From: a virus
Reading direction: 5' to 3' (one strand)
Virus record (IMG/VR): IMGVR_UViG_3300044911_003339
Coordinates: 32,001-96,000 of that record
DNA: 64,000 bases
Each line of letters opens with the position of its first letter. Position 1 is the stretch's first letter. The position numbers and the translations under genes are program-made. Positions 1,901 through 26,782 of this stretch are shown piece by piece. The notes below the pieces were generated by a model that saw nothing but the letters and a program-made list of their open reading frames with translations, was not told the origin of the DNA and searched no databases.

Positions 1901-2077
1901 ATGAACCACGACACCAAGAACACCGGCTACGCGTGCTCGGTCTGCAAGGCGTCTGCTCTCGTGGTGAACGGGAAGCTGATTCGCTCGTGTGAGCACTCGG
2001 CTCCAGTCCTCGCCGACATGACCGCGACCGTCTCGCAGCACGGTGGGGTCTCCCTCCCGCAGCCGCAGCGGGTGTGA
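1901..2077 (+). CDS. 58-aa Cys/His small protein (CxxC..CxH), below ORF-track cutoff
   Basis: SD GAGGGG, ATG 1901, MNHDTKNTGYACSVCKASALVVNGKLIRSCEHSAPV..., TGA 2075-2077; fills the gap exactly. Confidence 0.7.
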   Translation: MNHDTKNTGYACSVCKASALVVNGKLIRSCEHSAPVLADMTATVSQHGGVSLPQPQRV

Positions 2078-2078
2078 C

Positions 2079-2927: not shown

Positions 2928-2936
2928 AGGTCACAC

Positions 2937-4097: not shown

Positions 4098-4100
4098 ACC

Positions 4101-5255
4101 GTGGCGCTCATCCGCAACGGCGTGTCGCTCAACTCGAATCCGATGCGCGTCGGGGGAGGACCGAACGTCAACTCGATCAACCGACCCATCGGGCCGGGCG
4201 CGCAGCGTGGCTTCTACGCAGGCGAGGGCACGGTCGTCAGCGGAGCATCGATCGCCGACACGGCGGCGTTCCCCAACGGCTACGAGGGCGGGACAGCGTG
4301 GCTTCTCGCGCCCCGAGGCGGCGGTCTCTCCGCCTACACGACGTTCACGCACCCGAACGTCGTCACCGCGGCGCTCGCCTCGGGCATCAACATCGGGGCG
4401 ACGCTCACGTCAGACGGCACGATCACGACCGCTGCGATTCAGGCGCTCGCGAATCTCGTCTCTACGCTCACGGCGAACGGCGCGGTCACGACCGCGGCGA
4501 TCACGACTCTCTCGAATCTCGTCGCGTCGCTGACGGCGACGACCACAGTCACCGCTGCGATTCAGGCGCTCGCGAACCTCGCAGCAACACTCACGGCTGA
4601 CGGCTCGATCTCGAACGCAGAGCTTTCACTCGTCGTCGGGCTCGCGTGCTCGATGGTCTCCGACGGTTCGATCTCGACGGCGAACCTGAAGCTCGTCGTC
4701 GGAATCGTATGCGCCATGCTCTCCGACTGCGGCGTGAGCGGCACCCTCACCGCTCCGGCCAACCTCGCGGCGACGCTGCTCGCATCCAACAACGTGACGG
4801 GTGCGCTCTCTGCTCTGAGTAATCTGATCTGCGAGATGACCGCGAACGGATCGCTCGTCGCGTCGCTGCGAGGCACTCTGAGCATGAGCGCTGTGCTCAC
4901 GACTGCCGGAAGCTCGACGGACGCTCCCACGCCAGCGGAGATTGCTGTTGCCGTCTGGCAGTACGTCCTGAGCGGTGTGACGGCAGGCGACCGCTTGTCG
5001 GAGGTCACCGCGGCCCGGATGTCGCTGCTCTCGACCGAACTCGACCCCTCGCTGTCCGGCAGCACGGCGGCGCAGATGGTGCTCGCGCGGAAGATCCTGC
5101 ACAATCGCCTGGAAGTGGACATCGGCTCGCAACGGCTGGTGCTCTACGACGACGACAACACGACCGTGCTGAAGCGCTGGCCGCTCCAGACCACCGGAGG
5201 CGAGCCGGTCACCACCTCGCCTGGTGTGCAGACGAAGAGAAGGGCTCCGACGTGA
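4101..5255 (+). CDS. Ala/Thr-rich repeat virion protein (fibre/appendage-like)
   Basis: About eight 20-21 aa repeats; C-terminal NRLEVD..LVLYDDD.TTVL..W.L motif typical of phage virion proteins. Confidence 0.65.
   Translation: MALIRNGVSLNSNPMRVGGGPNVNSINRPIGPGAQRGFYAGEGTVVSGASIADTAAFPNGYEGGTAWLLAPRGGGLSAYTTFTHPNVVTAALASGINIGATLTSDGTITTAAIQALANLVSTLTANGAVTTAAITTLSNLVASLTATTTVTAAIQALANLAATLTADGSISNAELSLVVGLACSMVSDGSISTANLKLVVGIVCAMLSDCGVSGTLTAPANLAATLLASNNVTGALSALSNLICEMTANGSLVASLRGTLSMSAVLTTAGSSTDAPTPAEIAVAVWQYVLSGVTAGDRLSEVTAARMSLLSTELDPSLSGSTAAQMVLARKILHNRLEVDIGSQRLVLYDDDNTTVLKRWPLQTTGGEPVTTSPGVQTKRRAPT
4398..4915 (+). repeat. Degenerate ~60-63 nt coding tandem repeat
   Basis: Protein repeats such as ATLTSDGTITTAAIQALANLV; exact 26-nt repeat accgctgcgattcaggcgctcgcgaa at 4428 and 4551. 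Confidence 0.7.
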
Positions 5256-7552
5256 AGATTCGCAAGTCGATCACACAGGGGCTCAACGAGGTCGGCGGGC
5301 AGGTCTCTCAGGGCCTCAACGTCGGTGGCGCGGTCCCCGCCTCAGAACCGGCAAGCACGGGCTTCGTGCTGATCCAGGAACCGGCGCGGCACCCGAGTCG
5401 CCGGTTCCCGCACATGCAGACCGAGAGGCTTCGTCGCCTCGCGGAAGCAGGACTCGGCGAGACGCAGCGCTTCGTGCGCAGAATCTCGCAGACGGAGGAA
5501 GAGGGCACGCGCCCCGCTCCTCACGTCCTCTCGCCCGAGGACGTGACGCGACAACTGGGAGTGCCGCTCGACCTCGAACAGAAGATTCACGCCATCGTGC
5601 GTGAATCGATTCCTCCGAGCGACGGATCGAAGATCGTGGACGTGAAGCGCTTCGGCAGCGCTCGAACGCGACTCCTCGACTTCATGCGGAGACAGAAGGT
5701 CACCCTCGACTCGGACCTTCGCGCAGAGATCATGCGTCGCGCCCTTCACTACTGGCGAGCAAACTTCCGCGTCGATTACGGACGCACCCCGGAGATGCGC
5801 ATGGGCAAGGCACTGGTGATCCCCAAGCAGCGCTTCGTGCTCATGAAGGGCCCGAAGGTAGAAGCCCCTGGCGCGAGCCCGACGGGTCGAGTCTCGATGC
5901 ACCCGATGCACGTGGACGCGTCGTCGGGGAAGGTCGGCCACAAGTACATCGCGCGCAAGCCCGATGGGCATGGCGGCTGGCTCTACAAGTACCCCGGCGA
6001 CACCGAGTTCCGCCCCGGCGCGGGAATCGAAGAGGGGCACACGCAGGCCCCCGAGGGCGCGCACCTCGGCGTGCACGAGAGCGGATTCCGCCCGACGCAC
6101 GAGCGCCACGCGGACGGTGGGCACACGTTCCACTTCGGAGAGGACGTGTCCGCCCACATCCCGGCCAACGCGGACCGCGAGCACCACCGGAAGGAGCACG
6201 CGAAGCACGGGGCCGCCTACAAGAAGGCGATGGCCGAGGGCAACGAGGAGAAGGCCAAGGGGCACCTGCGCGCCTACCAGATGCACGCCGAGGCCCACAA
6301 CCGCGCCCTCTCGGCCGAGCGCAAGGCCGCGAAGACGGGCATGGCTCCGCCAGGGCACGGGCTGCCTCCTGACGTGGGCAGTCAGGTCGAGGGCAAGCCC
6401 CAGAAGCAGCCCCCCGGAGCAGGCGGTCCTGCTACGATGCCCGGTGCCCCTGGCGGCTCTCCAGGCCAGCGACCTCCTACGCAGGGCGGGATGGCCGCTG
6501 GGGGCGCTCCGATGACTCCTGGGGGCGCAGGGGAGCCCCCGCAGGGCTTCGCAGCCCGCACGCCTCCCGGAGCCGACGTGGGGCAGTACCGCCAGCATCT
6601 CCAGGCCGCGAGCGACGCGATGTCGAACCTCGCGGCGACGCATGCGCACGTCGCGGACCTCGACGCCCGCATCAAGACCGTGAAGGCGGATCGCTCGCTG
6701 CACCCGCGCATGAAGAAGCAACTCGCGGCGCAGCTACAGGCGGAGAAGGCGCAGGCGGAGCTTGACCGATTCCAGCACGAGGACGCGCACGACGCGGCCA
6801 TGGAGCAACTGAAGTCGATTCACTCCGCGCTCCGAAAGGAGAAGCTGAAGCACCACCCGATCGTGAAGATGATCGACGGGCTGCTGAAGCTCATGCAGAG
6901 CTTCGCGTCGAAGATGGGCCACGGGCCGAACCCGAAGGGCGAAGAGGGCGCGAGCCCCAACGAGCGCCAGCGGGTCGTGGACTTCTACAGCGCCCGTTCC
7001 GACGCAGCCGGCGAGGCGAAGGCCGGCGCAGGCGGCGAGGAGTTCAAGCCACGCGAGCGTACGCTCTCGCTGCGCGCTCCCACCGACACGGGCGGAGCCA
7101 AGCCCGTCGGAGAGAATCCCGCTGCGAGCCCCGCGACCCTCGCACAGAAGCGCGAGGCTCCGAAGACGGCGGCGAGCGACAGCACGTGGGACGCGGACCT
7201 CGCGAGCGCGAAGGCGAAGCGTGACGAGACCGAGCGTGCTGCGAGTCAGGCTGGCGACACGTGGCGGAATCGCCAGATCGCGCAGGGCAAGGACACGCAG
7301 GGCATGCTGCGTGAGCAGCTTCGCGCTCCCACGGAGACCTCGGAGGCCAAGACGGCAGCGCCGAAGCGCCCGACTGCGGCGGGCACGGTCGCGCCGCGGA
7401 AGCGGGCCGCGAAGTCGGCGACCGAGGCGGACCTCATCGATCTCCGCAAGGCGCTCGCGCTCGCGCACGAGGGCCTGCGTGAGACCGCGCTGACCGACAA
7501 GCGAATCGTCTTCACGCCCCCGACCGAGCGCCGCGTGCGCCTGGAGTGGTGA
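5252..7552 (+). CDS. Large low-complexity putative internal head protein with HKY tag
   Basis: Overlapping GTGA start; GHKYIARKPDGHGGWLYKYP motif, His-rich helix, Pro/Gly linker, coiled coil, K|[AGS] sites. Confidence 0.7.
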   Translation: MKIRKSITQGLNEVGGQVSQGLNVGGAVPASEPASTGFVLIQEPARHPSRRFPHMQTERLRRLAEAGLGETQRFVRRISQTEEEGTRPAPHVLSPEDVTRQLGVPLDLEQKIHAIVRESIPPSDGSKIVDVKRFGSARTRLLDFMRRQKVTLDSDLRAEIMRRALHYWRANFRVDYGRTPEMRMGKALVIPKQRFVLMKGPKVEAPGASPTGRVSMHPMHVDASSGKVGHKYIARKPDGHGGWLYKYPGDTEFRPGAGIEEGHTQAPEGAHLGVHESGFRPTHERHADGGHTFHFGEDVSAHIPANADREHHRKEHAKHGAAYKKAMAEGNEEKAKGHLRAYQMHAEAHNRALSAERKAAKTGMAPPGHGLPPDVGSQVEGKPQKQPPGAGGPATMPGAPGGSPGQRPPTQGGMAAGGAPMTPGGAGEPPQGFAARTPPGADVGQYRQHLQAASDAMSNLAATHAHVADLDARIKTVKADRSLHPRMKKQLAAQLQAEKAQAELDRFQHEDAHDAAMEQLKSIHSALRKEKLKHHPIVKMIDGLLKLMQSFASKMGHGPNPKGEEGASPNERQRVVDFYSARSDAAGEAKAGAGGEEFKPRERTLSLRAPTDTGGAKPVGENPAASPATLAQKREAPKTAASDSTWDADLASAKAKRDETERAASQAGDTWRNRQIAQGKDTQGMLREQLRAPTETSEAKTAAPKRPTAAGTVAPRKRAAKSATEADLIDLRKALALAHEGLRETALTDKRIVFTPPTERRVRLEW

Positions 7553-8262
7553 TGTCCAGCAAGGCCGAAGCCGTCGTCGTCGCGAAGGCGCTCGCGCTCA
7601 TGGGCAAGCGAGGTCGCCGAGGTCCCGTCGAGGACGAGGTGGCTCCGCGTCGCGCGAGCACGAAGCTCCATCGAGGCCGGAAGATGCCGGCCGAGCCTGC
7701 GTCTCGCTGGCCTCACAGCGCGAAGCGGCCGAAGGCCGTCGTCCAGCCCGACCTCACAGAGCCCGGTGTGCAAGGTCGCCCGCCGAAGTCGAGCGAGACG
7801 CCCGTCTACGGCAAGGGCTCGACCATCGGACCCGGACCAGGCGGCGGAGGGATTCTCGGCAAGCGGAAGGGGAAGCGCCCCTACGCACGCTCGCCGAAGT
7901 ACACGACGCTCGACATGATGGCGGCCGATCTCCACGGCAAGGTCGTCGGCCCGATGGGGTCGAAGGAGAACTCAGGCACCAGCTACGGGCCCGGCCCTGG
8001 ATGGAACTCGAACCCGATGCCGGACTTCGGCGACATGTTCCCCGGCCGAGACCCGAAGGGGTCGGAACGCGAGGAGACGAAGGCGCAAGCGAATCGCATG
8101 GTCTCGAATCGCAAGCGCAACGAGGGTACGATGGGGTTTCACGGAACCCCTCCCAAGCCGACGCTTCGGGCTGAAGCGAAGGAGCAGTTCTTCATCACCG
8201 CGACGCGCGAGAGCGAGAACAAGCCTCGCCTCTACGCGCGCGTCGGCTACAAGAGGTCGTGA
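7552..8262 (+). CDS. Basic, probably disordered hypothetical protein
   Basis: TGATG coupling at both ends; VVAK|A site near N terminus; Lys/Arg/Pro-rich. Confidence 0.65.
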   Translation: MSSKAEAVVVAKALALMGKRGRRGPVEDEVAPRRASTKLHRGRKMPAEPASRWPHSAKRPKAVVQPDLTEPGVQGRPPKSSETPVYGKGSTIGPGPGGGGILGKRKGKRPYARSPKYTTLDMMAADLHGKVVGPMGSKENSGTSYGPGPGWNSNPMPDFGDMFPGRDPKGSEREETKAQANRMVSNRKRNEGTMGFHGTPPKPTLRAEAKEQFFITATRESENKPRLYARVGYKRS

Positions 8263-11200
8263 TGCCGCTCGGTCACAAGTACATCTCGCGCAAGCGCAAC
8301 GCTTCTGGCGGTTACGATTACGTCTACCCGCATCCCACGACGGGTGAACGCGTTCGCATCCGCACTTCCCTGCGTCTCGACGGCGAGCATCGCTCGGTCA
8401 CGGCCGAGAATCCCGAAGACCGCACGATGTCGGCGACAGCCTGGTCGCGTCGCGGGGCAGACGGCAAGACGCTGACCGAGGCTCACTCTGCGCTCGACGA
8501 GGCCGAAGCTCCGATTCATCGCGCCGCGGTCGCTGACACGATGAACCGGAAGAAGACGATCACGCGCCTCTCGCACAAGACCTCCAGCTACGGCGAGAAG
8601 CACGGCATCGGCCCTGACGACAAGGGAGGCTCTGCGGTTCGTGACGCCGCACGCAAGGCGGCGTGGGCTGCTTCCGAGCCGCCCACTGGAGGCCACACCC
8701 GCGAGACGCACGAGAAGGCCGCGAAGGCGCACGAACACGCCGCGAAGCTCGAACGCGAGGCCGGGCGACGTGATGGCTACGTGAGGCACGCTTCGATGGC
8801 CGAGCAGCATCGCAACGCGATGGAGCGGCTGGGCTCCTCAGAATCCGATTCACCAGTCTATCCGTTCTGGGTCCGCAACCAGAGGACCGGGGTCTCCGAG
8901 GGATTCAAGACGCGTGAGCAGGCCGACACGCACCTGCGGCACTACGTGAAGAATCCCGAGGACCACATCATCGAGCAGGTCGGCGCGAAGGGTCCGAAGG
9001 TCAACGTGGACCACCTGCTCTCCGGCAACATGGGAATCCCGCGCATCGAGATGCCGCAGATCCGTTCCTTCAAGCTGCCCGAGTTCCTCTCCAAGCTGGA
9101 GAAGAAGGGCATCAAGGCGACGAAGGGTGAGCGCGCAGTCGGCTCGCTGAAGCCGACGCAGAACGAGATCCACGGCGAGCGCGTCCAGGAGATCATCGAA
9201 GACCCGAAGGAGCGAGAGAATCTCGCGAAGCAGATCATCATCTCGAACGACGGCTTCATCCTCGATGGGCACCATCGCTGGGCAGCGCTCACGACGATCG
9301 ACCCGAAGGCGAAGATCAAGACGCTCCATGTGGACATGCCGATGCGCTCTCTGCTGAAGGAGGCGCACGCGTTCGAGGGTGTGGAGTACCAGAAGAGCGA
9401 ACAGGAGACGGACATGGGCGGCGACCTCATCGACAACCTCGAACTGCTCGCGAAGGGCGACACGCTCGTCGGCTTCTACTCGCCCGGTGTCGCTCGCGGC
9501 GGCAAGTACTACCGCCGAGTCCCGACCGGGAATCCGAAGCACCCGTGGAGGTACTTCTACACGGAGGCGGAGTACAAGGACGCGATGAAGGACGCTTCGC
9601 ACGTCGGCGGGACCGAGGCGAAGCGGGCGCGCGTGAAGAAGCGCGTCTTCGTGAGCGAGAAGGAGGCGCGCGAGAAGTACGGCCTTCCTGGTACGACGAA
9701 GGAGCTTCACGCGCCGGACGGGAACTACCCGCCCGAGCGGAAGAAGCTCCACGAGGAGATCATCTCGCACTTCCTCGACGGCAAGGGGAAGCCCCCCGCA
9801 GGCAAGAAGCCCGTCGCGCTGCTCACCGTCGGAGGTCCGGCCGCGGGCAAGTCCACGCTGCTGAAGCACCTCGGCGAGAACCTCGACGATTACGTGATGA
9901 TCGCCGCCGACGACGTGAAGGAGAAGCTCCCCGAGTTCCAGCGCGCGCTCAACCTCGGGAATCGCAAGGTGACGCAGCCCGACGGCTCGGTCACGAGCGT
10001 GCCAGTCACGGCGAGCCACTCGGGCTGGATGGCGCACGACGAGAGCACGGACATCTCCGACGAACTGGAGAAGCGCGTCATCGCCTCGGGCAAGTCGGCC
10101 ATCTTCGACGGCACGGGCAAGAACGTCCCGAAGATGCTCGCGAAGATCGCCGCGCTGAAGAAGGCCGGCTACCACGTGCGCGTGGTGATGCCGCACGTGC
10201 CGATGGGCGAAGCGATCAAGCGGCTGCACTCGCGCTCGGAGGACACGGGCCGCACGCTGCCCGTCGATGCGGCGATCGACATGCACCGGAAGATTCCGGG
10301 CAACTTCGAAGCCATCGCTCGCGCTGCCGACGACTTCTCGCTCTTCAAGTCGGGCAACCCGCCGAAGCCGATCTGGACGGGCGGCGCGGGTCAGGAGGAC
10401 AAGATCCACGACCACGAGGAGATGTCGAAGTTCAACCTCGCGCGAGGACTGCACCAGGACATCGGCGCAGAGGAGAAGGCGGGCGGAATCTACAAGAAGA
10501 GCGAGGACCCCGAAGCGCTCGACGCGACCGGCCCGAAGCAGCCGCACCACACCATGAACGAGTTCATGGAGATCCTCTCGCGCTGGAACGGCTCCATCGA
10601 CAACCACGAGGACGGCCGGAGCAAGGTGCCGCACGACGGCGACATCGAGGACGGCCTCGCGGACGTGATTCCCGACGCGGAGGACGAGACCGTCAAGCAC
10701 CTGAAGCGTCGTGCTCCGAAGGCCAAGAAGGCGAAGGGCGCTCGCTTCATGGAGCGAGGCGAGGTCGAGAAGAGCGGCGACCTCATCGACTCGCTGGAAG
10801 CTCTCGTGAAGGGCGGCGAGGCTGCGGGGCACAAGCTGGTGCACTCGGAGAATCCGCGTGCGCACGGAGGAGACGTGACGAAGAGCGACCGCTCGCGTCG
10901 CCTGGAGGAGAAGATCATGAGCGACGAGATGCAGAAGGGCCTCTACCAGTTCCAAGGTCTCGGCTCGGGCGAGGTCCCGGACCAGTACCTCTACGATTAC
11001 CTCTGCGCGTTCGTCGAAGAGGCGTACGAGCACGAGCGGCAGGAGAAGGTGCACCAGAACACGCTCGTGCCGCCGTCGAGCACGGGGGCGAGCATCGAGG
11101 ACGTGTGGGCGACCGCCGTCTTCAACGAACTCGTCAGCATGATGGGCTCGAACGCGAACCTGAAGCGCGCGGCGGTGAAGTACAACGTCACGAAGGACGT

Positions 11201-11624
11201 GATCGCGCACATCCTCCGCAGCAAGGGCCTCGTGCGCCCCTTCTCCGACGCCGGCACGTGGACGAGCGACTACGACTCGATGCGCGCGATGGACGGCGAG
11301 GGCGTCACGCGCCCGCTCGTGCTCTCCGAGTCGGCCCGCGCGCAGTACCGCGACATCGTGCCGGATCCGTTCGGGCACAACGTCGGAGTCGCGCTCGCGA
11401 AGGCCGAGCCCGCGCCGACCGCGCCGCTCTTCATCGACGATTCCCACGACCCGCACGGGAATCTCGCGAAGGCCGAGCGTGCTCGCCTCGCACTCGTGGA
11501 CTACCGGCAGAACGCCGAGTGGCGGCCGAACGTCTCGCCGACGTGTATGATCCACGGCAGCGCGGATCTCACGAAGTCGATGAATCTCTCGAACCCGCAC
11601 GCTCGCTGCACCTGCCCGCGCTGA
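8262..11624 (+). CDS. Polyvalent protein: HKY tag + ParB/Srx-like domain + zeta-toxin-like P-loop kinase + C-terminal domain
   Basis: ParB-like LKPTQ..IIIS.DGFILDGHHRW (~9130-9330); zeta-like GGPAAGKST, I.ADDVK, HDES, IFDGTG, R...TGR.LP (~9800-10350); C-terminal CxxH..CxC. Confidence 0.8.
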   Translation: MPLGHKYISRKRNASGGYDYVYPHPTTGERVRIRTSLRLDGEHRSVTAENPEDRTMSATAWSRRGADGKTLTEAHSALDEAEAPIHRAAVADTMNRKKTITRLSHKTSSYGEKHGIGPDDKGGSAVRDAARKAAWAASEPPTGGHTRETHEKAAKAHEHAAKLEREAGRRDGYVRHASMAEQHRNAMERLGSSESDSPVYPFWVRNQRTGVSEGFKTREQADTHLRHYVKNPEDHIIEQVGAKGPKVNVDHLLSGNMGIPRIEMPQIRSFKLPEFLSKLEKKGIKATKGERAVGSLKPTQNEIHGERVQEIIEDPKERENLAKQIIISNDGFILDGHHRWAALTTIDPKAKIKTLHVDMPMRSLLKEAHAFEGVEYQKSEQETDMGGDLIDNLELLAKGDTLVGFYSPGVARGGKYYRRVPTGNPKHPWRYFYTEAEYKDAMKDASHVGGTEAKRARVKKRVFVSEKEAREKYGLPGTTKELHAPDGNYPPERKKLHEEIISHFLDGKGKPPAGKKPVALLTVGGPAAGKSTLLKHLGENLDDYVMIAADDVKEKLPEFQRALNLGNRKVTQPDGSVTSVPVTASHSGWMAHDESTDISDELEKRVIASGKSAIFDGTGKNVPKMLAKIAALKKAGYHVRVVMPHVPMGEAIKRLHSRSEDTGRTLPVDAAIDMHRKIPGNFEAIARAADDFSLFKSGNPPKPIWTGGAGQEDKIHDHEEMSKFNLARGLHQDIGAEEKAGGIYKKSEDPEALDATGPKQPHHTMNEFMEILSRWNGSIDNHEDGRSKVPHDGDIEDGLADVIPDAEDETVKHLKRRAPKAKKAKGARFMERGEVEKSGDLIDSLEALVKGGEAAGHKLVHSENPRAHGGDVTKSDRSRRLEEKIMSDEMQKGLYQFQGLGSGEVPDQYLYDYLCAFVEEAYEHERQEKVHQNTLVPPSSTGASIEDVWATAVFNELVSMMGSNANLKRAAVKYNVTKDVIAHILRSKGLVRPFSDAGTWTSDYDSMRAMDGEGVTRPLVLSESARAQYRDIVPDPFGHNVGVALAKAEPAPTAPLFIDDSHDPHGNLAKAERARLALVDYRQNAEWRPNVSPTCMIHGSADLTKSMNLSNPHARCTCPR

Positions 11625-11660
11625 ACGCGCAGGAGTCGCCCCGAGGCGTAGAGGAGACGC

Positions 11661-13460: not shown

Positions 13461-14221
13461 GCGTCCGCACCTTCCTCGACATGAGCTTCCAGATCGGACT
13501 GGAGAACAGTCTCGACGATTCGCTGTTCGAGCGCACGAACTCGCAGCTTCTCGACACGCTTGACCACGCAACCGGAGGTGTCGTGTCGCTCGCGGCGCTT
13601 CAGACGAACGTCACGCTGCCCTTCGGCGACGTGACCGAGGCGCGAATCCTCTACATCGAGGCCGAGGACGGCGACGTGCGCTTCACGCTCGGCGGCGGGC
13701 TCGCGACCTCGGGGCGTATCGACGCCGTGGGCGCGGCCTACCCGACGGGCTTCGTCGGCGCAGAGACGCTCGACTTCGAAGTGGACGCCACGGCGATCGC
13801 CGTGACCTTCACGTCGGGAGACCAGACGATCACGCAGGTCATCAACCGTATCAACGCGGCGTGCGCGCTCGCGGGATTCGCCACGCCGATCGCGAAGGTG
13901 AGCGCGGGGCAGCTTCGCCTCGAAAGCCCGACGACGGGCACGTCTTCGTCGATCGAGATCATCGGAGGCACAGGCCGCGCGACGCTCGGCCTCCCCGCTC
14001 CCTCCACCATCAACTCAGGTGCGAACTCGACGCCCGGCACGAGCCCCGTGGAGCTTCGTCGTCCCGCGGACCCCGCGGGCGCGAGCGCCGCGGCAGGCGT
14101 GAAGGCGATCTTCTTCGGCACCGTGAAGACGAGCAGCATCGTCATGGAGAATCTCTCCGACAACGTGACGAAGGTGCGCTGGGCGATCGCGGGAGACCTC
14201 ACGACCGACGACGCGTGCTGA
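13457..14221 (+). CDS. Putative virion structural protein
   Basis: ATGA coupling; beta-rich with a sheath-insert-like motif (V..RINAA..A....GQLRLES.TTG.SSSIEI). Confidence 0.6.
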   Translation: MSVRTFLDMSFQIGLENSLDDSLFERTNSQLLDTLDHATGGVVSLAALQTNVTLPFGDVTEARILYIEAEDGDVRFTLGGGLATSGRIDAVGAAYPTGFVGAETLDFEVDATAIAVTFTSGDQTITQVINRINAACALAGFATPIAKVSAGQLRLESPTTGTSSSIEIIGGTGRATLGLPAPSTINSGANSTPGTSPVELRRPADPAGASAAAGVKAIFFGTVKTSSIVMENLSDNVTKVRWAIAGDLTTDDAC

Positions 14222-14231
14222 CGGAGGTCCC

Positions 14232-19000: not shown

Positions 19001-19137
19001 ACGGCGCGTCCGATTCGGCTATGGTCGGGGAGTGGCTCCGGTTCCCGGAGCTTTCGCGACTTCGCTGGGCGAGCGAAGATCCGCTCGTGCACGCTCCGAC
19101 GATCGCTCGCGCACGGTTCGATTCCATCATCGGGTGA
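16024..19137 (+). CDS. Polyvalent protein: ADP-ribosyltransferase/Tpt1-like domain + sigma70-like regions 2 and 4
   Basis: LFHST....I..EGL.P, VFLS, MLRV, VP..DI (ART fold); LV...AKR, EL.QAG.EGLL.AI.SY....F..HA..YVR, I.IP (sigma region 2); LGL....L.L.EV (region 4-like). Confidence 0.7.
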   Translation: MAILKIADLVKSGGPYIGPKGGVWADPQHTVPWKSDHEDTTSHLFHSTPAYAMSRIKREGLAPRKGAGLFQHGGYDLHSQGKVFLSNNLYAAKQWHSKVEAQLEHHHDNPKHHVAVMLRVKPRETHLDDVGDRDVSGSRFVRDVVPATDIEFFHEGTKRWKPVKDYKHGTHGIPDDHYEAHAPRDEEADAAEKAAAKEARRAKREAEEQATRARLAALQEERAKREAAEAQVHFRDSDEGKAILTRWKGLSPEERQAKAKRILDAPRPFPGAPSMLSLGQRGEVWREALGVDEKGNLVKSRFIIKAGPSGGGWMPIPGGHHGGLRRRHGAGWEYWYPNGAPHFVLREQKHPEEQHGHEQIDPEPSHWALVTPGPGLPPVGWTAGGVNPHDTKTPVKEAGVSGKLYRIKNPHIREGWALLTDVRSGEDHMVQHDRVMPVRWLSPEERALQGSTEPQEPFSTWKPGVGPSKRPSGGGASEGKRMPSFPDSRALPGTETHKLENGAYVWRKVTRYEADEDGTTRKVERLAPGIPDSDKIALIAEYEGLVAKTAKRVRSAFGLSARLSTGPGQRTVDDTLVELRQAGVEGLLHAIDSYRPVGPFAAHAQQYVRDYARLHAAREFAGGIAIPRRHARLLSSYIAARAEAARVSGSHDPSPEVVAEFWKPKKRDLHSGLSPEEGGGTIPLAGYTLKRKTTSTDPETGKKKTTVEGEDVVQQPGRLEWAQQFHAFLVGQGGMADIDEQAALFPGLGVGTGLGADERIAVREAMMRALPPDGTIVTVQAGPQAQFRGETWKAIDLALGLSSGDPLPLDEVVRRVPVEGSRGGEWKRLGSSRARAAIEALIRDGLNTVARHLRGDEDRAASLAQALVTKLVPTEAPKERLPTMRERIRAAMARITPAEVQRWREETRARYPERPDIGRRMSRVTDSEAKRRIVEERIAAAPLTPEMHEAMLRTMTAIRQGVSASGQNVFGVVDPKGSKKSLRVHSLSKAGDHGASDSAMVGEWLRFPELSRLRWASEDPLVHAPTIARARFDSIIG

Positions 19138-19145
19138 GGTTCTCC

Positions 19146-19490
19146 ATGAAGAGGTTCTCCATCGACCCCGCCACGCTGCCGACCACATGGCGGGTCGGGC
19201 GGCGTGTCGGCAATAGCGGGCTGGAGCACGCCTTCGATCTCCGCCGTCGGGATGACGGCGGAATCTCCATCTCGAACGTCGAGCACCCGCTCACGGAGAC
19301 CGAGCGCACCATGCTGCTCTCGCACTTCGGCAAGGCGCGCGTCGTGACGATCGGAGGCGAGGCCGACAACGGCGCGCTCGTGACGACGATGCAGCGCCAC
19401 GAGCCGGGGGAGATCGAGAACTTCGTGGAGGCGGTCTACTCGCTGCCCTCACCCTTCATGGTGATGCCGAACGCTCGGAGGGAGACATGA
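19146..19490 (+). CDS. Hypothetical protein (114 aa)
   Basis: SD GAGGT before ATG 19146; ATGA-coupled to the next gene. Confidence 0.65.
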   Translation: MKRFSIDPATLPTTWRVGRRVGNSGLEHAFDLRRRDDGGISISNVEHPLTETERTMLLSHFGKARVVTIGGEADNGALVTTMQRHEPGEIENFVEAVYSLPSPFMVMPNARRET

Positions 19491-22400
19491 GCCGGTTCGT
19501 GATTCCTGCGCTCCGCGCCGCACTGCCGGACGCCCTGGCGAAGTCGTTCCAGCGAGGCCCGCTCGCGCAGCACAAGTACCTGAAGCGAGAGCCCTACTTC
19601 GTCGGGGGCAAGCTGCGCTGGAGGTACTGGTACGCGAGCGACGAGCTTCGCAAGCAGGGCATGGTCGAGCACGACCCCGCGGGCGAGCACGAGCACCACC
19701 TGCTCGCGAACATCGCGGACATCTACGAGCACTTCAAGTCCGTGATCCGCTCGACTGCTGCGACCCCGACGACGGCGATCGAGGGAATCTTCCAGGCCGC
19801 GGTCGATGACCCGAAGGCGCAGCGCGTGCCACAGGTCGCGATGTCTCCGGCGTTCCAGGCGCAGCACGTTCAGCCGTTCATCGACGCAGAGGCGAAGGGA
19901 GCACCTCCCGAGGCGAGCCCGATCGTGCGCGTGCACGACGCGCTGGAGATGGTGCCCGACTACCTCCTGAAGCTCGTGATGGGCGGGACGAAGAACACGA
20001 AGCACCCCGGCTACAAGGGGCTCGGCCCGTACCCCGGTCTCTCCGCGCTCGTGATGAATCGCCAGGAGGACGAGGGAGCGGATTACGCGAACACCGCAGG
20101 TTGGGCGCATCCGAAGACGGGCGAGCTTCACCTGCTTGGCGGCGGCTCGGGCAAGCACGGCAGCGATTCGAGCTACTCCTTCCTCGACGGCGGCGACCCT
20201 GCCACGGCTCCCACGCCGACGGACTTCAACGACGCGAAGGTGCATCTCGAAAAGGTCGTCTGGCACGAGCTTGGGCACCACGTGCACTTCACGCTGGAGA
20301 CCGAGCAGCCGGACGTGATGGATTCGTGGAGGGACCTCTCGACGGGTCCGGGTCCGAAGCCGACGGCCTACGCGCACACGGCATGGTGGGAGGACTTCGC
20401 AGAATCCTTCTCGGGCTGCTTCGCGCTCCCGAAGGTGATGGCGATGCGCTGCCCCGAGCGATACGACTGGATGCGACAGCACGTCCTGAAGTCGCTGCCC
20501 GAGAGGTCCGCGCTCCTGAAGATGTCGGACGAGGAACTCGCGTGGTGGAACAAGAAGAAGACCACGCCGCCCGGCAAGCTGCTGATGCACCTGAAGTCGA
20601 ACGCGCCCGCGCGTCGCTTCGGTGCCTACTACAGCGACAAGGACCAGTTCTTCACGGTCGGCAAGGGAGGGCGCACGGTCTACCTGCGCTTCGGTCCGTC
20701 CGAGCCTGATCAGGAGGACGGCTGGACGCAGGTCCCCTCGACCATCGACCCGGAGACCGGGCTGCCGGTCTACGACGCCGCCTACGGTCCGCGCTTCAAG
20801 GTGCAGGGCAACCTGAAGGAGATGTACGACGAGCGCGGGAATCCGCTCGACGACTTCCAGGCGTTCCTCTACCTCGGACAAGACGACCCCGAGGTGCAGA
20901 AGTTCGTCGCCGACACGATGGAGAAGTACGTCGCGACGTTGCCTCCGAACTCGCCGCAGCCGACGGAGTACGACGCGGTGCAGTGGCTCGCCGCGAAGGG
21001 CGGCGACGAGGCGAAGGCTCTGGAGACGCGTCTGCTCTCGTACAAGATGTACACGTCGCTCGGCTACAAGCGGGAGTCGGAGAAGATTTCCGCGAAGGAA
21101 GCCCACACGACGGAGAAGGAGCGCAAGCGAGTCGAGAAGGAGCGCGCGAAGGGCGGCACGGGCTACCTCGATCGCCACGACTGGGTTCCGGTCGAGATTC
21201 CTCGCTCGGAGTTCGTTCAGAAGTCGGGCACCTTCAAGTTCGACAACGTGCGACCCGCGGAGTACCAGCCGTGGCAGGCCCGCGAGTGGGATCCCGTCAC
21301 GAAGACCTCGCGTGTGAAGACCGTCTACGACCCTGCGGCCGGCAAGGTGGTGCCCGTGCGCACGGCGACGGTCTACGAGCAGGAGAACCCCGACGGCACG
21401 ACGTTCCGTGTGACGGTCGCGGAGGGCGAGCCCTTCTCGATCGGACAGACCATCCTCGCGCCGGTCAGCGTGAAGCTGCCCGACGGTCGCATCTCGCAGG
21501 ACTGGCAGCCCTACAAGCTGTCCGTCGAAGACGGCGAGATGACCGTCACGAACCTCGCGAAGAAGTTCCGCGTCGATCCTGAGGCGCTCCTTCGTCAGAA
21601 TCACCGCTACATGCGCGGGCAGATCACGGACCCGATGCTCGCCGCGCTCCTCAACCCGAGCGGCGAGGTGATTCGCGATCAGTTCGATCTCATGCGCCTC
21701 ATGAAGCTCGCGGCCGAGCAGCCCACGCCGCCGACCGCGTGGGTCAGCGTCCGGGGCAAGACGGGCTCGATCGCTCACTTCAAGGTGAGCTTCGACGGCT
21801 CGGGCCCGCCGCGCGTCGAGGGTCGTCAGTGGGCCGCGAAGCTCGGGAAGGACCCGACCGAACCCATCCGCCTCGATCAGATTCTCGGGAAGGACGACGA
21901 ACTCATCGGCGTCGAGACCGTGCGCGAGCGGAAGGCGAAGGAGGTCAAGATCAAGCCGGGCGGCCTGGTGTGGGTCACCGTCAAGAATCACCTCGGCGAC
22001 GCGAAGCGCGTGATGGCGCGCTACATCGAGAAGAAGTCGTTCGAGGAGAAGGGCAAGAAGAAGAACGCCCACGTCGTCCAGGTGCTCCCCGGTCAGGGCA
22101 CGGGTCTGCCGAAGGACCGCGTGATCGTCACGCGCGTGAACAAGAGCGACGAGAGCCAGATCCCCGGCAAGCCGGAGATTCGTCGGCGCTTCGTCGAGCC
22201 GATGCAGAAGGACGTGCTGCTCTACGCCGACGAGGTGCGGGTCGGCTCGGGCGACCGAGACACGAGCGGCGTGATCAAGATCCTCCCGCCGAAGAACGGC
22301 TCGGTCACGAAGGCGCAACTCGCTGCGATTCCTGGCGTGCGCATCATCGGACTGGAGAAGGCACGGAACAAGAAGGGCGGAGCAGTCACGGAGGAGCTTC

Positions 22401-25400
22401 CCGAGGGCGTCGAGCTTGCCATCTCGCCCCGTGACCTCCCGGCCTTCCGGGAGTACCTCGGCGGCTTCGTGATGGACGAGCGCGTCTCGTCCATGATGGA
22501 CGAGCAGGCTGCCATCATCCGAGAGCGCGCGCTCCAGGTGACCGGAGAGGACTGGCCTCCCGCAGACCAGATCGTCGATGCGGACGGCAACGTGAATCCC
22601 AACGGAGTGCTGCGCGGCATGGTGACGGGCGCGATGGGCATGCAGCCCGGCGCGCATCGCATCGAGGCGCTTCAGCGCGTCGCGATGAACAACGGTCGCC
22701 TCATCGCTGCGCACTTCATGGGCACGGGCAAGACCGCGTTCTCGATCGCAGCCGCGCAGATGATGCGGAACCTCGAATCCCGCGAGCAGCCCGGCAAGCC
22801 GCACCCGAATCAGGTGAAGAAGAAGGTGCTCGCGCTCGTGCCGCTCAACACCGCGAACAACTACGCCGACGAGGTGGAGGTGTTCACCGGAAGGCCCGCA
22901 ACGATCATCGGCTCGGGCTCGCTCGCGGGCAGCGTGCGGATGTTCCGCATGCCGAAGGACCAGGGCCAGAAGAAGAACGAGACGCGCGAGGCGTTCATCG
23001 CGCGCTCGCTCGCCGCATGGAAGGCGGCGGTCAAGACCGACCCGACGCTGTGGAACCCGTGGGCAGACGATTCCCAGATGTGCGTCTGCCCCTACGAGTA
23101 CTTCCGCGACAACGAGGAGTTGATGCGGGCCACGGAGATGTTCGACGGGCTCGTCGTGGACGAGGCGCACAACATCGCACGTGAGAACGAACTCTCACGT
23201 GCGGTCGAGCGCTGGAATCCGAACATGAACATGTTCCTCATGCTCACCGGCACGCCCGTGACGAACACGCTCGACGTGCTCCCGCGTATGGCGAGCCTCG
23301 TGAGCGCGGGCAAGGTGAACCTCGGCACGAAGCAGGAGTTCACGGAGCGCTACCTCGTCGGCTCGGCTGTCGCGAAGGGCGAGGGCGCGAAGAATCCTCC
23401 GAAGACGGACCTCAACCCGCAGCGTGCCGGCGAACTGGCGGCGATCATGCGTCCGCTCATGCACATCGCGACGACGCAGGACGTGAAGGGCAAGACGATG
23501 CCCGCGGTGCTGCTCGACGAGAACAAGCCCGCGCACATGATCGGTCAGCAGGCGCGCATGTACCGACTCTCGATGGCGAAGTTCACGCCCGAGGAGAAGG
23601 CGGCGATCATCGAGAGCGGTGCGGTCGGCACCGACGAGTCGTACGCGCTCGATGACGAGGGTCGCCGCAAGATCGGTGTCGCTCGCTCGATCGCGAACTG
23701 CCTCGCCTACAAGGCACCCGACCAGCGTGAGAATCTCACGTACGAGTCGAAGAGCACCGAGGAGAAGAAGGGCAAGGTCATCGAGAAGACCGTCACCCGC
23801 GTCTTCTCGCTGCCCACGCACGCGATGATGACGACGAAGCGCCCCGAGGGCTGGGGCGGGAAGTGGCCGACGTTCTCGGAGGTCGAGAAGGGAATCGTCG
23901 AGCCGGGCTACTACAACGTGCTCTCGGAGTACTACGAGCGCCTCTTCGGCGTGACGTACGACTCCGTGGAGGGCAAGCCCATCGCGAAGGAGATCCTGGA
24001 CGGCGTGAAGCGCGGCGACTACGTGACGCCGAGCGGCGCGCCGTGGGGTACGGTCGTGAATCCCGATTACGGCCCAGAGGGCATGATCTGTCGCGGCACG
24101 CTCGACCCGGTGACGGGCAAGATCGAGCCGCTGCGGAAGGAGATCGTCGAGAACGGGCAGAAGCGCGTCGTCGAGGTCAAGCCGGGCACGCGCTTCATCC
24201 GCGATCCGAACTCCAAGGCGGCGGGCCTCTTCTACCACGAGGATGACTGGAACTTCACCGGCCGCTTCATCGACTCGGGCGAGGGAGGCGGCGGCGAGGG
24301 TGGAGGCGAGGACGATCCGTCCGACCCGAAGCCCGCGTCTGCCGGCAAGCAGGCCCCGAAGGACCCCTCGCTCTCCATCCAGCGTTCGACGAAGCGCCGG
24401 AAGGAGCGAGAGATGTTCGACCTCGCGGTCACGGCGGGCAACGCGAAGAGCGACGAACTGGAGCAGTACATCCACAACGCGCTTCGCGACGACAACCTCG
24501 GGCCCGATCAGCAGTTCATCCTCTTCGGGAATCGCATCGGCTCTTCCTTCCGCACGATGGAGAGCAAGCTCCGCACGATGGGATTCCAGGACGTGAACGA
24601 AGCGCTCGGGCACCCCGAGTGGAGCACGGCCGAGGACAAGGCGATGATGCCTCGGAAGTTCTTCGTGACGTACGCGGGCAAGGGAGCAACGCTCGGCGAC
24701 CGCGACATCAACTCGGAAATCTTCCGACAGAAGCTCGACCAGTTCGGCCACAAGACCGGGCAGTCGATGTTCGTCTTCCGCACGCTCAACGGCGGCACGA
24801 AGAAGCCACCCAAGGTCGGCGAGATGCGCGAGGGCTGGAGCCGTGGCCAGCGGAAGCGCATCGCCGACGCTCTCGCGGAGCCCACGCGCAAGACGGCCGA
24901 GGGCAAGCCTGCGGGCCTGGAGGTGCCGATGCGCGTGACGAGCGTCGAGGTCGATGGTCGCATCGAGCAGCGGTACCTCTACGAGTCGGACATGAAGCCG
25001 AAGGATCGCGCAGAGTTCCTCCGGCTGGAGAAGGAGCGCCGCGGCGCGGACAAGGCGCGCAAGCAGGCGATCGACGGCGAGATGCGCGCGCTCGCCGACC
25101 GCTACTGGAGCGACCGGATTCCTCTGTCCGATCACTACCAGTACGTGCTGAACAACACGCAGATCATGGTGGCGACCGACGCCGCGAACGTCGGCCTCAA
25201 CTGGCCTGCTCCCAAGCTCGTCATGTACGACTCGCTCTTCTCGCCGATGGACGAGTGGCAGCGCATGACGCGTGCGGCCCGCATGCTCGACGCAGCGGTC
25301 ACCGGACCCGCGAAGAAGTACGTCGAGAAGATCGACGCGAAGCTCTCCGAGATGGAGAAGCAGACCGGGCTGAAGGAGTACGGACCAGAATCTTCCCTTC

Positions 25401-26122
25401 AGGCGGTGCAGGACGCGATCGAGTCGCTCCCCGAGGACGAGCGCGCCGAGCTTCTGAACCTGGAGGGAGGAGGCCCCGATCAGATCGTCGAGGCCATCTT
25501 CAGCCGTCGCGCCATGGACAAGATCGCGAAGCTCCGCCCCGAGGTCGGCGCGCATCTCCGGCAGGCCGGCGCTGCGCCTGATCCCGATCGCCCCGAGATC
25601 CGCATCCGTCCATCGGCCATCCAGGAATCCGACGTGACGAACGAGATCATCCGCAAGCACCTCACGCCCTTCGAGCAGCGCGTGCTCCGAGGACGCATGT
25701 ACCTCGTGGACGTGAAGCGGCTCACGACCTCGTGCGACGTGCCCGAGATGAAGTCGATTCGCATCGAAGACCCGATGACGGGCAAGAAGACCACGGTTCA
25801 GGTCCCGACCGGCAAGTGGTCGGTCGAGGCTCCGACGCAGGCCGAGCGAAGCCAACTCACGCAGGGCCGCATGAAGATGGTGCCCTACGAGAAGGCGATG
25901 AAGGCGTTCCAGAACGCGCAGCCGGTGAAGACCGACTACGACTTCCTCGTGACGCCTCGCGGGAGCGTGCGTAGCTTCTCGATCATGCCTGAGGAGATCG
26001 AGCGCGAGAAGGCGAGTCGCGCGAAGCGCGAGGTCGCGAAGCCGAAGCCCACGAAGACGAAGAAGTCGGAGAGCTACAGCCGATTCTTCATTCCAGCGCG
26101 AACCGCGCGCGGGGAGGCGTGA
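19487..26122 (+). CDS. 2211-aa polyvalent protein: HKY tag + zincin peptidase + LysM-like + SNF2/SWI2 helicase
   Basis: HELGH..TAYA..W.EDFAESF; LAKKFRVDPEALLRQN; HFMGTGKT, LVVDEAH, LTGTP.TN, VATDAANVGLN, YD..FSP....QR..RA.R. Confidence 0.85.
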   Translation: MSRFVIPALRAALPDALAKSFQRGPLAQHKYLKREPYFVGGKLRWRYWYASDELRKQGMVEHDPAGEHEHHLLANIADIYEHFKSVIRSTAATPTTAIEGIFQAAVDDPKAQRVPQVAMSPAFQAQHVQPFIDAEAKGAPPEASPIVRVHDALEMVPDYLLKLVMGGTKNTKHPGYKGLGPYPGLSALVMNRQEDEGADYANTAGWAHPKTGELHLLGGGSGKHGSDSSYSFLDGGDPATAPTPTDFNDAKVHLEKVVWHELGHHVHFTLETEQPDVMDSWRDLSTGPGPKPTAYAHTAWWEDFAESFSGCFALPKVMAMRCPERYDWMRQHVLKSLPERSALLKMSDEELAWWNKKKTTPPGKLLMHLKSNAPARRFGAYYSDKDQFFTVGKGGRTVYLRFGPSEPDQEDGWTQVPSTIDPETGLPVYDAAYGPRFKVQGNLKEMYDERGNPLDDFQAFLYLGQDDPEVQKFVADTMEKYVATLPPNSPQPTEYDAVQWLAAKGGDEAKALETRLLSYKMYTSLGYKRESEKISAKEAHTTEKERKRVEKERAKGGTGYLDRHDWVPVEIPRSEFVQKSGTFKFDNVRPAEYQPWQAREWDPVTKTSRVKTVYDPAAGKVVPVRTATVYEQENPDGTTFRVTVAEGEPFSIGQTILAPVSVKLPDGRISQDWQPYKLSVEDGEMTVTNLAKKFRVDPEALLRQNHRYMRGQITDPMLAALLNPSGEVIRDQFDLMRLMKLAAEQPTPPTAWVSVRGKTGSIAHFKVSFDGSGPPRVEGRQWAAKLGKDPTEPIRLDQILGKDDELIGVETVRERKAKEVKIKPGGLVWVTVKNHLGDAKRVMARYIEKKSFEEKGKKKNAHVVQVLPGQGTGLPKDRVIVTRVNKSDESQIPGKPEIRRRFVEPMQKDVLLYADEVRVGSGDRDTSGVIKILPPKNGSVTKAQLAAIPGVRIIGLEKARNKKGGAVTEELPEGVELAISPRDLPAFREYLGGFVMDERVSSMMDEQAAIIRERALQVTGEDWPPADQIVDADGNVNPNGVLRGMVTGAMGMQPGAHRIEALQRVAMNNGRLIAAHFMGTGKTAFSIAAAQMMRNLESREQPGKPHPNQVKKKVLALVPLNTANNYADEVEVFTGRPATIIGSGSLAGSVRMFRMPKDQGQKKNETREAFIARSLAAWKAAVKTDPTLWNPWADDSQMCVCPYEYFRDNEELMRATEMFDGLVVDEAHNIARENELSRAVERWNPNMNMFLMLTGTPVTNTLDVLPRMASLVSAGKVNLGTKQEFTERYLVGSAVAKGEGAKNPPKTDLNPQRAGELAAIMRPLMHIATTQDVKGKTMPAVLLDENKPAHMIGQQARMYRLSMAKFTPEEKAAIIESGAVGTDESYALDDEGRRKIGVARSIANCLAYKAPDQRENLTYESKSTEEKKGKVIEKTVTRVFSLPTHAMMTTKRPEGWGGKWPTFSEVEKGIVEPGYYNVLSEYYERLFGVTYDSVEGKPIAKEILDGVKRGDYVTPSGAPWGTVVNPDYGPEGMICRGTLDPVTGKIEPLRKEIVENGQKRVVEVKPGTRFIRDPNSKAAGLFYHEDDWNFTGRFIDSGEGGGGEGGGEDDPSDPKPASAGKQAPKDPSLSIQRSTKRRKEREMFDLAVTAGNAKSDELEQYIHNALRDDNLGPDQQFILFGNRIGSSFRTMESKLRTMGFQDVNEALGHPEWSTAEDKAMMPRKFFVTYAGKGATLGDRDINSEIFRQKLDQFGHKTGQSMFVFRTLNGGTKKPPKVGEMREGWSRGQRKRIADALAEPTRKTAEGKPAGLEVPMRVTSVEVDGRIEQRYLYESDMKPKDRAEFLRLEKERRGADKARKQAIDGEMRALADRYWSDRIPLSDHYQYVLNNTQIMVATDAANVGLNWPAPKLVMYDSLFSPMDEWQRMTRAARMLDAAVTGPAKKYVEKIDAKLSEMEKQTGLKEYGPESSLQAVQDAIESLPEDERAELLNLEGGGPDQIVEAIFSRRAMDKIAKLRPEVGAHLRQAGAAPDPDRPEIRIRPSAIQESDVTNEIIRKHLTPFEQRVLRGRMYLVDVKRLTTSCDVPEMKSIRIEDPMTGKKTTVQVPTGKWSVEAPTQAERSQLTQGRMKMVPYEKAMKAFQNAQPVKTDYDFLVTPRGSVRSFSIMPEEIEREKASRAKREVAKPKPTKTKKSESYSRFFIPARTARGEA

Positions 26123-26656: not shown

Positions 26657-26716
26657 CGCTGCTGCCGGATTCGTGACACACCATGGACCGTGGCCTGCTC
26701 CCGTGTGGAGCACGAG

Positions 26717-26752
26717 AGGCGACCGAAGGAGAAATCCATCGGTCGCCTTTTT
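26717..26752 (+). terminator. Terminator/attenuator-like hairpin before the prohead protease
   Basis: AGGCGACCGA-aGGA-GAAA-TCCa-TCGGTCGCCT-TTTT. Confidence 0.7.
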
Positions 26753-26782
26753 CGTTCTCGGGTCGCAGATCGCGCGGACGCG

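Follow-up and report, generated by a model that had tools for sequence, protein, structure and literature searches.

Recurring tags in large modular proteins around the portal gene of an uncultivated phage: a putative head-cargo block

Gene organization of the head block

We analyzed a window of 64,000 nucleotides (bases 32001-96000) of the 105,161-bp IMG/VR virus record IMGVR_UViG_3300044911_003339, which comes from an uncultivated phage and is rated complete by CheckV. The G+C content is 66%, and nearly all genes were placed on the + strand by gene calling based on GC3 (G+C at third codon positions). The subject of this study is the region at 5252-26122 (window positions are given unless the genome is named), where seven + strand genes are found besides the portal gene and three of the products are 1037-2211 amino acids (aa) long, in agreement with the initial annotation of this DNA, which had pointed to large modular proteins around the portal. 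As described below, these proteins carry enzyme-like modules and recurring short tags, both of which are almost certainly real, and the region is, on balance, probably a cargo compartment of the head module, where tagged polyvalent proteins would be loaded and then diced by the S78-type prohead protease. The genes of the region and those that follow it are:

5252-7552, + strand: g5252, 766 aa, lysine- and proline-rich
7546-8262, + strand: g7546, 238 aa, basic
8259-11624, + strand: g8259, polyprotein of 1121 aa
11661-13460, + strand: portal (Pfam Phage_portal 1.5e-21; phrog_12 1e-50)
13457-14221, + strand: g13457, 254 aa, portal-adjacent, without lysine sites
14232-16046, + strand: g14232, 604 aa, head protein fused to a zincin
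16024-19137, + strand: g16024, 1037 aa
19487-26122, + strand: g19487, 2211 aa
26124-26429: small gene between g19487 and the protease gene
26690-27538, + strand: prohead serine protease of the S78/HK97-gp4 type (phrog_1028 4.3e-50)
27554-28588, + strand: scaffold-like protein with an acidic tract
28659-30083, + strand: major capsid protein, Herelleviridae-like (phrog_752 4e-87; 32-35% identity to SPO1-group capsid proteins)

The proteins for portal, protease, scaffold and capsid belong to the Herelleviridae (SPO1/A511) type. Contigs with portal homologues were collected as relatives and coded L005 and so on, the L005 portal being 99% identical to that of the window. The g13457 gene is kept beside the portal in L005-L011 and L035, and g7546, a candidate small internal head protein, is kept in L005 and partly in L035. 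No match to g5252, g7546 or g13457 was obtained in Pfam, PHROGs or NCBIfam. Note that the true start of g5252 may be near Met54, because the N-termini of its homologues align from about residue 40-57.

Tags and their enrichment in the head block

The tag, with which the modules and also the portal begin, consists of two parts. The first is a short amphipathic peptide, typically D-x-I-D-x-L-x-x-L-x-K and more rarely R-F-V-I-P…L-x-K, which ends in hydrophobic-x-K and is followed by S, A or G. The second part, usually located after the lysine site, is an aromatic motif of about 20 residues that takes the forms H-K-Y-x-x-R…W-x-Y-x-Y, Y-x-G-P-x-G-G-x-W-A-D-P-x-H-T and W-E-Y-W-Y. All six aromatic motifs of the genome are inside the head block. 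In the two most upstream genes, the sites are (an arrow marks the bond at which cleavage is predicted):

5834-5992: g5252, R-F-V-L-M-K↓G site at K199↓G200 and H-K-Y tag at residues 230-247
N-terminus of g7546: V-A-K↓A-L site at K14↓A15

We compared the head block (5252-30083) with the rest of the proteome by using shuffles that keep the composition of each protein. The L.K[SAG] motif occurred 29 times in the head block versus 8.7±2.6 times in the shuffles, and 12 times in the rest of the proteome versus 14.3. For the stricter L[AVMI]K[SAG], the counts were 15 versus 2.2 in the head block and 4 versus 3.6 elsewhere. Four control motifs (R for K, E for K, the reversed motif, and a different residue after K) were flat. 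Composition bias as the cause of the tag enrichment was ruled out by these composition-keeping shuffles and control motifs. The tags are thus enriched in the head block relative to the rest of the proteome, a point on which the initial annotation had made its reading depend.

The lysine site in canonical head proteins

The lysine motif is also present in proteins that build the head itself:

11661-11708: portal, predicted N-terminal propeptide ending L-A-K16↓A17
27278-27289: protease, C-terminal L-A-K199↓S200-L site
28659-28742: capsid protein, predicted 28-residue propeptide ending L-R-K28↓A29
Scaffold-like protein: five L-[AV]-K-[S/A/G] sites, at K22, K31, K200, K228 and K265

The site positions in the capsid, scaffold, protease and portal proteins are kept in relatives at 35-75% identity. 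Specifically, L008, L021 and L022 retain the scaffold sites in proteins of about 40% identity, the protease site is kept in five homologues, and the portal of L008 has L-V-K↓A-L. In Bacillus phage SP-10, a true member of the Herelleviridae, the motif is found at the same places as in the window's head proteins, and the scaffold-like counterpart has eight copies. Furthermore, we took the capsid maturation site of Listeria phage A511 from the GenBank mat_peptide annotation, where the mature capsid protein begins at residue 24, after A-L-K23 (K23↓S24); this site aligns with K28↓A29 of the window. HK97 gp4, the type protease of the S78 family, cuts the capsid protein gp5 after lysine, at K103↓S104. 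There is good reason, from these sequence comparisons, to regard the lysine motif as the putative site of the head protease. The head serine protease is indicated because the site is common to the capsid, scaffold and protease proteins of SP-10 and A511, phages without cargo between portal and protease.

Domains of the large proteins

The sites, tags and domains of g8259 are:

Residues 6-23: H-K-Y tag at the start, followed by module A
9018-9413: ParB-like region, residues 254-385
9393-9560: first linker helix ending K399↓G400, and G-K-Y tag at residues 415-434
9783-10328: zeta kinase, residues 509-690
10764-10838: second linker ending K851↓G852; a further site is K893↓G894
10938-11621: conserved portal-adjacent C-terminal domain, residues 894-1121

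The zeta kinase was matched by Pfam Zeta_toxin (PF06414) with an E value of 5e-20 (72.1 bits versus a cut-off of 22.3) and has the Walker A motif G-x-x-x-x-G-K-S-T, so that the zeta-like kinase named in the initial annotation is confirmed. In the ParB-like region, a D-G-H-H-R motif is invariant in 10 homologues, and g8259 matches phrog_2859 at 3.6e-30; on the other hand, the model matches were below threshold (ParBc_2, E 0.12), and a profile search of PDB gave a weak match to 1vk1 and the serine kinase SerK at E 0.04-0.1 that spans the motif only. The ParB-like label is weak. The C-terminal domain at residues 894-1121, which has a Cys-rich end, is always directly 5' of the portal in relatives, and everything before it varies. 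From this arrangement, the domain may be a core head component onto which cargo modules were fused.

In g16024, four segments were distinguished:

16024-16122: N-terminal propeptide ending K11↓S12, and Y-x-G-P-x-G-G-x-W-A-D-P tag
16153-16569: ART/Tpt1-like domain, residues 44-182, followed by a charged linker
16906-17031: K299↓S300 and K305↓A306 sites and W-E-Y-W-Y tag, followed by a conserved middle domain
17611-18600: sigma-70-like module, residues about 530-859, followed by a C-terminal region

Sequence models did not recognize the sigma-like module. Pfam gave no match for it, NCBIfam SigF matched g16024 at E 0.018 only, and a profile of g16024 homologues found no sigma factor among PDB sequences, where the only matches were a portal-InPase chain (9b41, see below) and spurious ones to clathrin light chain on a charged helix. 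We then modeled residues 500-870 by AlphaFold (AF2) from nine homologues, with a predicted local distance difference test (pLDDT) score of 75. In a Foldseek search with this model, almost all of the top 50 hits were sigma factors, aligned over about 340 columns at E 6e-4 to 2.6e-2, and VIA-align gave Z scores of 9-11.4, where the sigma-2 domain fits at 1.8-2.5 Å over 74-88 residues with 19-24% identity; these matches are to be read with the caveat that the fold is helical. Sigma domains 2 to 4 lie in order in the model (about residues 530-859), and protein-atlas features of the module scored 0.94-0.95 to sigma clusters. As judged from the model, g16024 very probably carries a divergent sigma-like module, so the sigma70-like label is upheld by fold and lacks a counterpart among the sequence models. 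Note that a search of the genome with PF04542 found only one gene, at genome positions 103761-103937, past the window end. This is a conventional sigma-70 region-2 match (26.5 bits, above the cut-off), and the phage thus encodes a canonical sigma factor besides the divergent module of the head block.

The ART/Tpt1-like domain had no Pfam match, and the NCBIfam RNA 2'-phosphotransferase model matched at E 0.029, far below its cut-off. Its structural model had a pLDDT of 68. The best Foldseek match, at a weak E of 0.16, was to KptA/Tpt1, and a wide VIA search gave Z of at most 5.2 with most rows being ART-fold proteins; KptA/Tpt1 and other ADP-ribosyltransferase folds dominate the Foldseek matches as well. 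The fold matches are weak but consistent, and the earlier ART/Tpt1 label is a weak one. The domain differs from the ART-PolyVal domain of another protein, P0163.

The features of g14232 and g19487 are:

14520-15419: g14232, C-x-x-C … H-P-x-C-x-C region, residues 97-396
15615-15941: g14232, H-E-F-G-H zincin, residues 462-570 (HExxH at 507-511; weak metallopeptidase matches)
19487-19633: g19487, N-terminal propeptide ending L-A-K19↓S20, and H-K-Y tag at residues 29-49
19934-20476: g19487, region of the H-E-L-G-H zincin (motif at residues 260-264)
22559-23620: g19487, SNF2 ATPase, residues 1025-1378
25151-25285: g19487, Helicase_C, residues 1889-1933

The two HExxH motifs agree with the two zincins of the initial annotation, and its SNF2 helicase was likewise recovered, since g19487 matched Pfam SNF2-rel_dom (PF00176) at 4.8e-11 (42.7 bits; cut-off 24.9), ResIII, and phrog_62 at 1.2e-27. 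Helicase_C (PF00271) scored 22.2 bits, slightly below its cut-off of 23.5, and phmmer found no match of g19487 among PDB sequences. The MuF label was not borne out by the models. Pfam Phage_Mu_F (PF04233) did not match any part of the genome at E<=1, no PHROG or NCBIfam match was obtained, and g14232 is instead homologous to the portal-adjacent head protein of SP-10 (29% identity, E 7e-36). It resembles MuF in the Cys/His motif only, and the SP-10 counterpart is itself without a Pfam match.

Several disparate activities are thus combined per polypeptide, namely ParB-like and zeta kinase in g8259, ART-like and sigma-like in g16024, and zincin and SNF2 in g19487. Tags separate the domains in g8259 and g16024, as described earlier, and this part of the description does not extend to g19487.

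Modules are gained, lost and exchanged at the tags

In the g8259 homologue of L005, which is about 96% identical, two modules are added and one is missing, and all of these differences start and stop at a repeated tag copy. Whole modules were therefore gained or lost exactly at the tags, in line with the cargo swapping between conserved tags for which the initial annotation suggested comparing related phages. In BLAST comparisons with tag-bearing proteins, the alignments of the zeta module begin at window residue 386-389 and at residue 1-2 of several partner proteins, and those of the sigma-like module begin at residue 300-321 of g16024 and at residues 2-18 of its partners. In other phages, the same modules open a protein with the same peptide straight after Met. 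Elsewhere, InPase or ParB-like cargo precedes the sigma-like module in place of the ART-like domain. Distant relatives keep around the portal only the g8259 C-terminal domain, the portal, g13457 and g14232, and the rest is swapped. In L028 and L029, a tag comes directly after the g14232-like head-protein match.

Spread of the tag in other phages

A tag profile of 42 positions, built from 19 tags, was run on 1.84 billion representative proteins. It found 430 clusters at E<=1e-3, of which 74 reached E<=1e-10. Many of them have 2-5 copies, in proteins of up to about 3,100 aa. Among the top 40 tag-bearing proteins, Pfam identified Zeta_toxin in 7, LPD1 in 4, RelA_SpoT in 4, SNF2 in 3 and ddrB-ParB in 3, and also InPase, ART-PolyVal, DUF5661 and a few others, indicating that the domains of tag-bearing proteins are those of the polyvalent-protein repertoire.

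Hydrophobic-x-K-[SAGT] precedes 94% of 268 aromatic motifs by no more than 16 residues, versus 14% for random windows of the same proteins, and the preferred spacings between the lysine motif and the aromatic motif are 4 and 10 residues. The D-x-I-D-x-L-x-x-L-x-K peptide was found in 42 copies versus about 1 in shuffles. Of the 42 copies, 10 stand immediately behind the start Met, and 28 internal ones follow another K-[STAG]. Many internal copies retain a Met, suggesting that the internal linkers once were propeptides at N-termini and that fusion of neighboring tagged genes gave rise to the polyproteins. The R-F-V-I-P…L-x-K pre-cut peptide is rare (6 copies versus 0.25 expected).

An exact degenerate DNA pattern of the tag matched viral contigs of 30-73% G+C; no match was found in viral contigs for one protein, P0016. 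Where flanks were available, the tags adjoin portal, g14232-like, protease or capsid genes of the same family, and the protease family is encoded in four of the five tag-bearing records tested. In addition, the PDB entry 9b41 chain L ('gp19 Portal') has an InPase domain at its C-terminus, which spans residues 635-752 and is matched by the g16024-homologue profile at E 4e-29, indicating that at least one polyvalent cargo domain is physically part of a head.

Zeta domains without the tag were also observed, in a 'minor head protein / head morphogenesis' gene of cyanophage PSS2 and in the haloviruses HCTV-5 and HVTV-1, where the match is named 'zeta toxin and ParB nuclease domain protein'. The PSS2 and halovirus matches miss the tag region.

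Surroundings of the head block

Other features of the window are:

1-872, + strand: 3' part of the large terminase gene, which starts 861 nt 5' of the window (Pfam Terminase_6C, E 1.2e-9)
930-5255: five genes between the terminase gene and the head block
36055-38325: tail sheath

Because of the tail sheath gene, this is a contractile-tailed phage. Four of the genes upstream of the block, at 1441-1890, 2043-2927, 2937-4097 and 4101-5255, are absent from L005 despite the 99% identical portal. Two of these four are paralogues with C-terminal ends alike, the 4101-5255 product has reiterated A-L-A-N-L…T-L-T-A repeats and resembles a fiber or decoration protein, and family searches with the genes at 1441-5255 gave no match. 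In the portal homologues of L016, L017 and L018, query residues 177 and 179 are separated by an insert of about 166 residues that stays in frame within a single open frame and could be an inserted domain or an intein.

The 10-mer A-A-T-C-G-[T/G]-G-T-A-[A/G] occurs in 13 copies on the + strand and 1 copy on the - strand, at genome positions 681-27208 (5' of the window) and at window positions 56624-56633 (+) and 55764-55773 (-). There are 11 copies in the first 28 kb of the genome, and the copies are mostly intergenic, several lying 3-28 nt 5' of a start codon. From its sequence and placement, the 10-mer looks like a phage-specific promoter.

A search of 50,697 cultured phage records with 11661-16046 found no DNA-level similarity, g16024 had no protein match among these phages, and a portal scan of 185,579 species genomes found no related prophage.

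A proposed route for loading and processing of the head cargo

We propose the following scheme. The amphipathic peptide would act like a T4 capsid-targeting sequence and keep the cargo attached to the scaffold core while the prohead assembles. Next, the prohead protease, which is of the S78 type, would cut after the lysine, and the same cut would remove the capsid propeptide, dice the scaffold and trim the protease. Cutting would free the mature modules one by one, and the new N-terminus of each would carry the aromatic motif. The polyproteins may have arisen by fusion of adjacent, separately tagged cargo genes, as the former start Met in many internal tags would suggest. The analogy of T4 Alt and the internal proteins, of P1 Dar and of the N4 virion RNA polymerase (vRNAP) suggests that the mature modules would exit together with the DNA and have an early role, possibly in counter-defense (ParB-like, SNF2 and kinase) and in transcription takeover (ART-like and sigma-like). 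We consider it quite likely that the proteins of the block are packaged in the head, and injection of the mature products has a slightly better than even chance of being correct.

Several points weigh against this scheme. Targeting, cleavage, encapsidation and injection are all steps that we infer. The protease matched Pfam S78 (PF04586) at E 0.011 with 16.3 bits, below the cut-off of 21; the procapsid protease of SP-10, which has the same gene order, passes S78 at 36.6 bits. The lysine motif was refined post hoc on the sequences, although its looser original form is still enriched (67 versus 42±5.8). Loose matches inside folded domains, such as L-K-K-A in the zeta domain, cannot all be cut. 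In g19487, the tag is at the N-terminus only and internal sites are few, so that it would remain a protein of ~240 kDa. The co-occurrence of the lysine and aromatic motifs (94% versus 14%) is partly circular because the tag profile included upstream columns. Finally, a search of cultured phages with the 42-aa tag query and the zeta module found no tagged protein.

The tags could instead be structural or binding elements, in which the aromatic, hairpin-like motif anchors each cargo domain to DNA, portal or capsid, the lysine motif is a conserved part of a linker, and packaging takes place without cutting, as for N4 vRNAP and P1 DarB. The aromatic motif is indeed the best-conserved part of the tag, g19487 has one clear site only, nucleic-acid-binding anchor domains have been proposed for polyvalent proteins, and N4 vRNAP is packaged unprocessed (PMC5512222). 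However, the lysine motif also occurs without the aromatic motif at places where head proteases are known to cut, namely the capsid propeptide, the scaffold and the protease C-terminus, and the internal linkers equal the N-terminal, Met-started peptides, which removable propeptides fit better than permanent linkers. We therefore judge permanent anchoring to be improbable.

Cutting by another enzyme is less probable still. The zincins of g14232 and g19487 could process the cargo before or after injection, with the prohead protease limited to capsid and scaffold. That the block has two HExxH domains, and that embedded zincins were proposed as the processing enzymes of polyvalent proteins, of which zincins are the commonest domain (PMC5512222), count in favor of this possibility and against cutting by the prohead protease. 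Nevertheless, SP-10 and A511 have the same cut-site in their head proteins without such cargo between portal and protease, and the two activities could coexist. The idea that the block proteins are late cytoplasmic enzymes rather than virion components, with the enrichment reflecting shared ancestry or lysine-rich helices, is very unlikely, since the higher lysine content of the head-block proteins (6.4% versus 2.8% in the rest of the proteome), which speaks for it, fails to reproduce the enrichment in composition-keeping shuffles with flat control motifs, the genes lie between terminase, portal and protease with the portal itself carrying a tag, and both the tags after the g14232-like matches of L028 and L029 and the solved portal with an InPase cargo domain point to the head.

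Loading by the tag and dicing by the head protease thus remain our preferred explanation. A broader form of it is tentative and, taken as a whole, rather unlikely. Here, phages of 30-73% G+C would have a widespread tag-and-cut encapsidation code, by which any enzyme gene could become head cargo through an amphipathic peptide of ~12 residues that ends in hydrophobic-x-K↓[S/A/G] and an aromatic hairpin, neighboring tagged enzyme genes would fuse, and the fusions would be diced into single effectors again by the S78-type protease. Directly upon injection, the virion-delivered sigma-like factor, paired with the ART-like domain, would redirect the host RNA polymerase to early promoters of the phage itself, with the sequence A-A-T-C-G-K-G-T-A-R.

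Polyvalent proteins are widespread among phages. Their head entry and cutting have been left open so far, and self-processing by embedded zincins is the only published proposal that we found. A conserved tag with a cut-site like that of the head protease makes loading and processing directly testable. If loading needs nothing beyond the tag, phages outside the T4 group would have a portable capsid-targeting signal, and the tag would provide a sequence rule to predict which effectors of metagenomic phages are delivered by the virion. If true, a sigma-like factor carried in the virion would be a further route to start phage transcription beside N4-type virion RNA polymerases and T4 Alt.

Comparison with known systems

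The initial annotation is confirmed in its observation and partly supported in its interpretation, and the idea is less new than it implied, as polyvalent proteins, T4 targeting sequences and processed ejection proteins have already been published. The proteins described here belong to the known polyvalent class and are located in the head module. For polyvalent proteins, Iyer, Burroughs, Anand, de Souza and Aravind (2017) predicted packaging and injection and proposed zincin-mediated processing (PMC5512222). As in that class, giant chains of unrelated enzyme domains (zincin, ParB, SNF2, kinases, ART and InPase) are encoded near the portal and terminase genes (PMC5512222). The window proteins have HExxH motifs and gave no LPD, ddrB-ParB or ART-PolyVal match; the relatives and tag-bearing proteins match the Iyer-defined Pfam families ddrB-ParB, LPD1, InPase, ART-PolyVal and DarA_C. 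A search of the text of Iyer et al. found neither a recurring tag, nor a lysine cut-site common to head proteins, nor a sigma-like module, and a link between polyvalent proteins and the prohead protease appeared in the literature searched only as a passing mention in the same paper (PMC5512222).

In T4, N-terminal propeptides target IPI-III and Alt to the scaffold core, gp21 removes them at the capsid/scaffold consensus, and the cargo includes an ADP-ribosyltransferase that acts on the host RNA polymerase (PMC9026906). The likeness is that the cargo propeptide ends in a consensus also present in capsid, scaffold and protease. Unlike T4, the consensus is hydrophobic-x-K↓[S/A/G] instead of L/I-x-E, the protease is S78/HK97-like instead of gp21, and the tags are repeated inside polyproteins and followed by an aromatic motif that would stay on the product. 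The T4 peptides have no sequence homology to the tags. Because T4 differs in consensus, in protease family and in sequence, the likeness to T4 is one of analogy and not of membership.

The Dar system of P1 (DarA, DarB, DdrA/B and Hdf) comprises large, head-packaged and partly processed proteins, including a helicase protein and the ParB-like DdrB, and DarB has about 2,200 aa. DarA_C and ddrB-ParB domains are present in relatives of the window phage, whereas the window's own proteins are below the threshold for Dar families. P1 also has a different head type, and a tag system is not described for it.

In the giant phages phiKZ and SPN3US, the protease is T4-like and the motif is [S/A/G]-x-E. 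Many proteins inside their heads are reported to be processed by the prohead protease at a common motif and ejected into the host (PMC10052503, PMC7411985). Their cargo includes a multisubunit RNA polymerase and not tagged polyvalent polyproteins.

In the head proteins themselves, the likeness is with the Herelleviridae SPO1, SP-10 and A511, which have homologous portal, protease, scaffold and capsid proteins with the same K↓[S/A] sites. In SP-10 and A511, the portal, protease, scaffold and capsid genes are adjacent, whereas in the window phage ~13 kb of cargo separates the portal from the protease and another 6.4 kb (5252-11624) precedes the portal.

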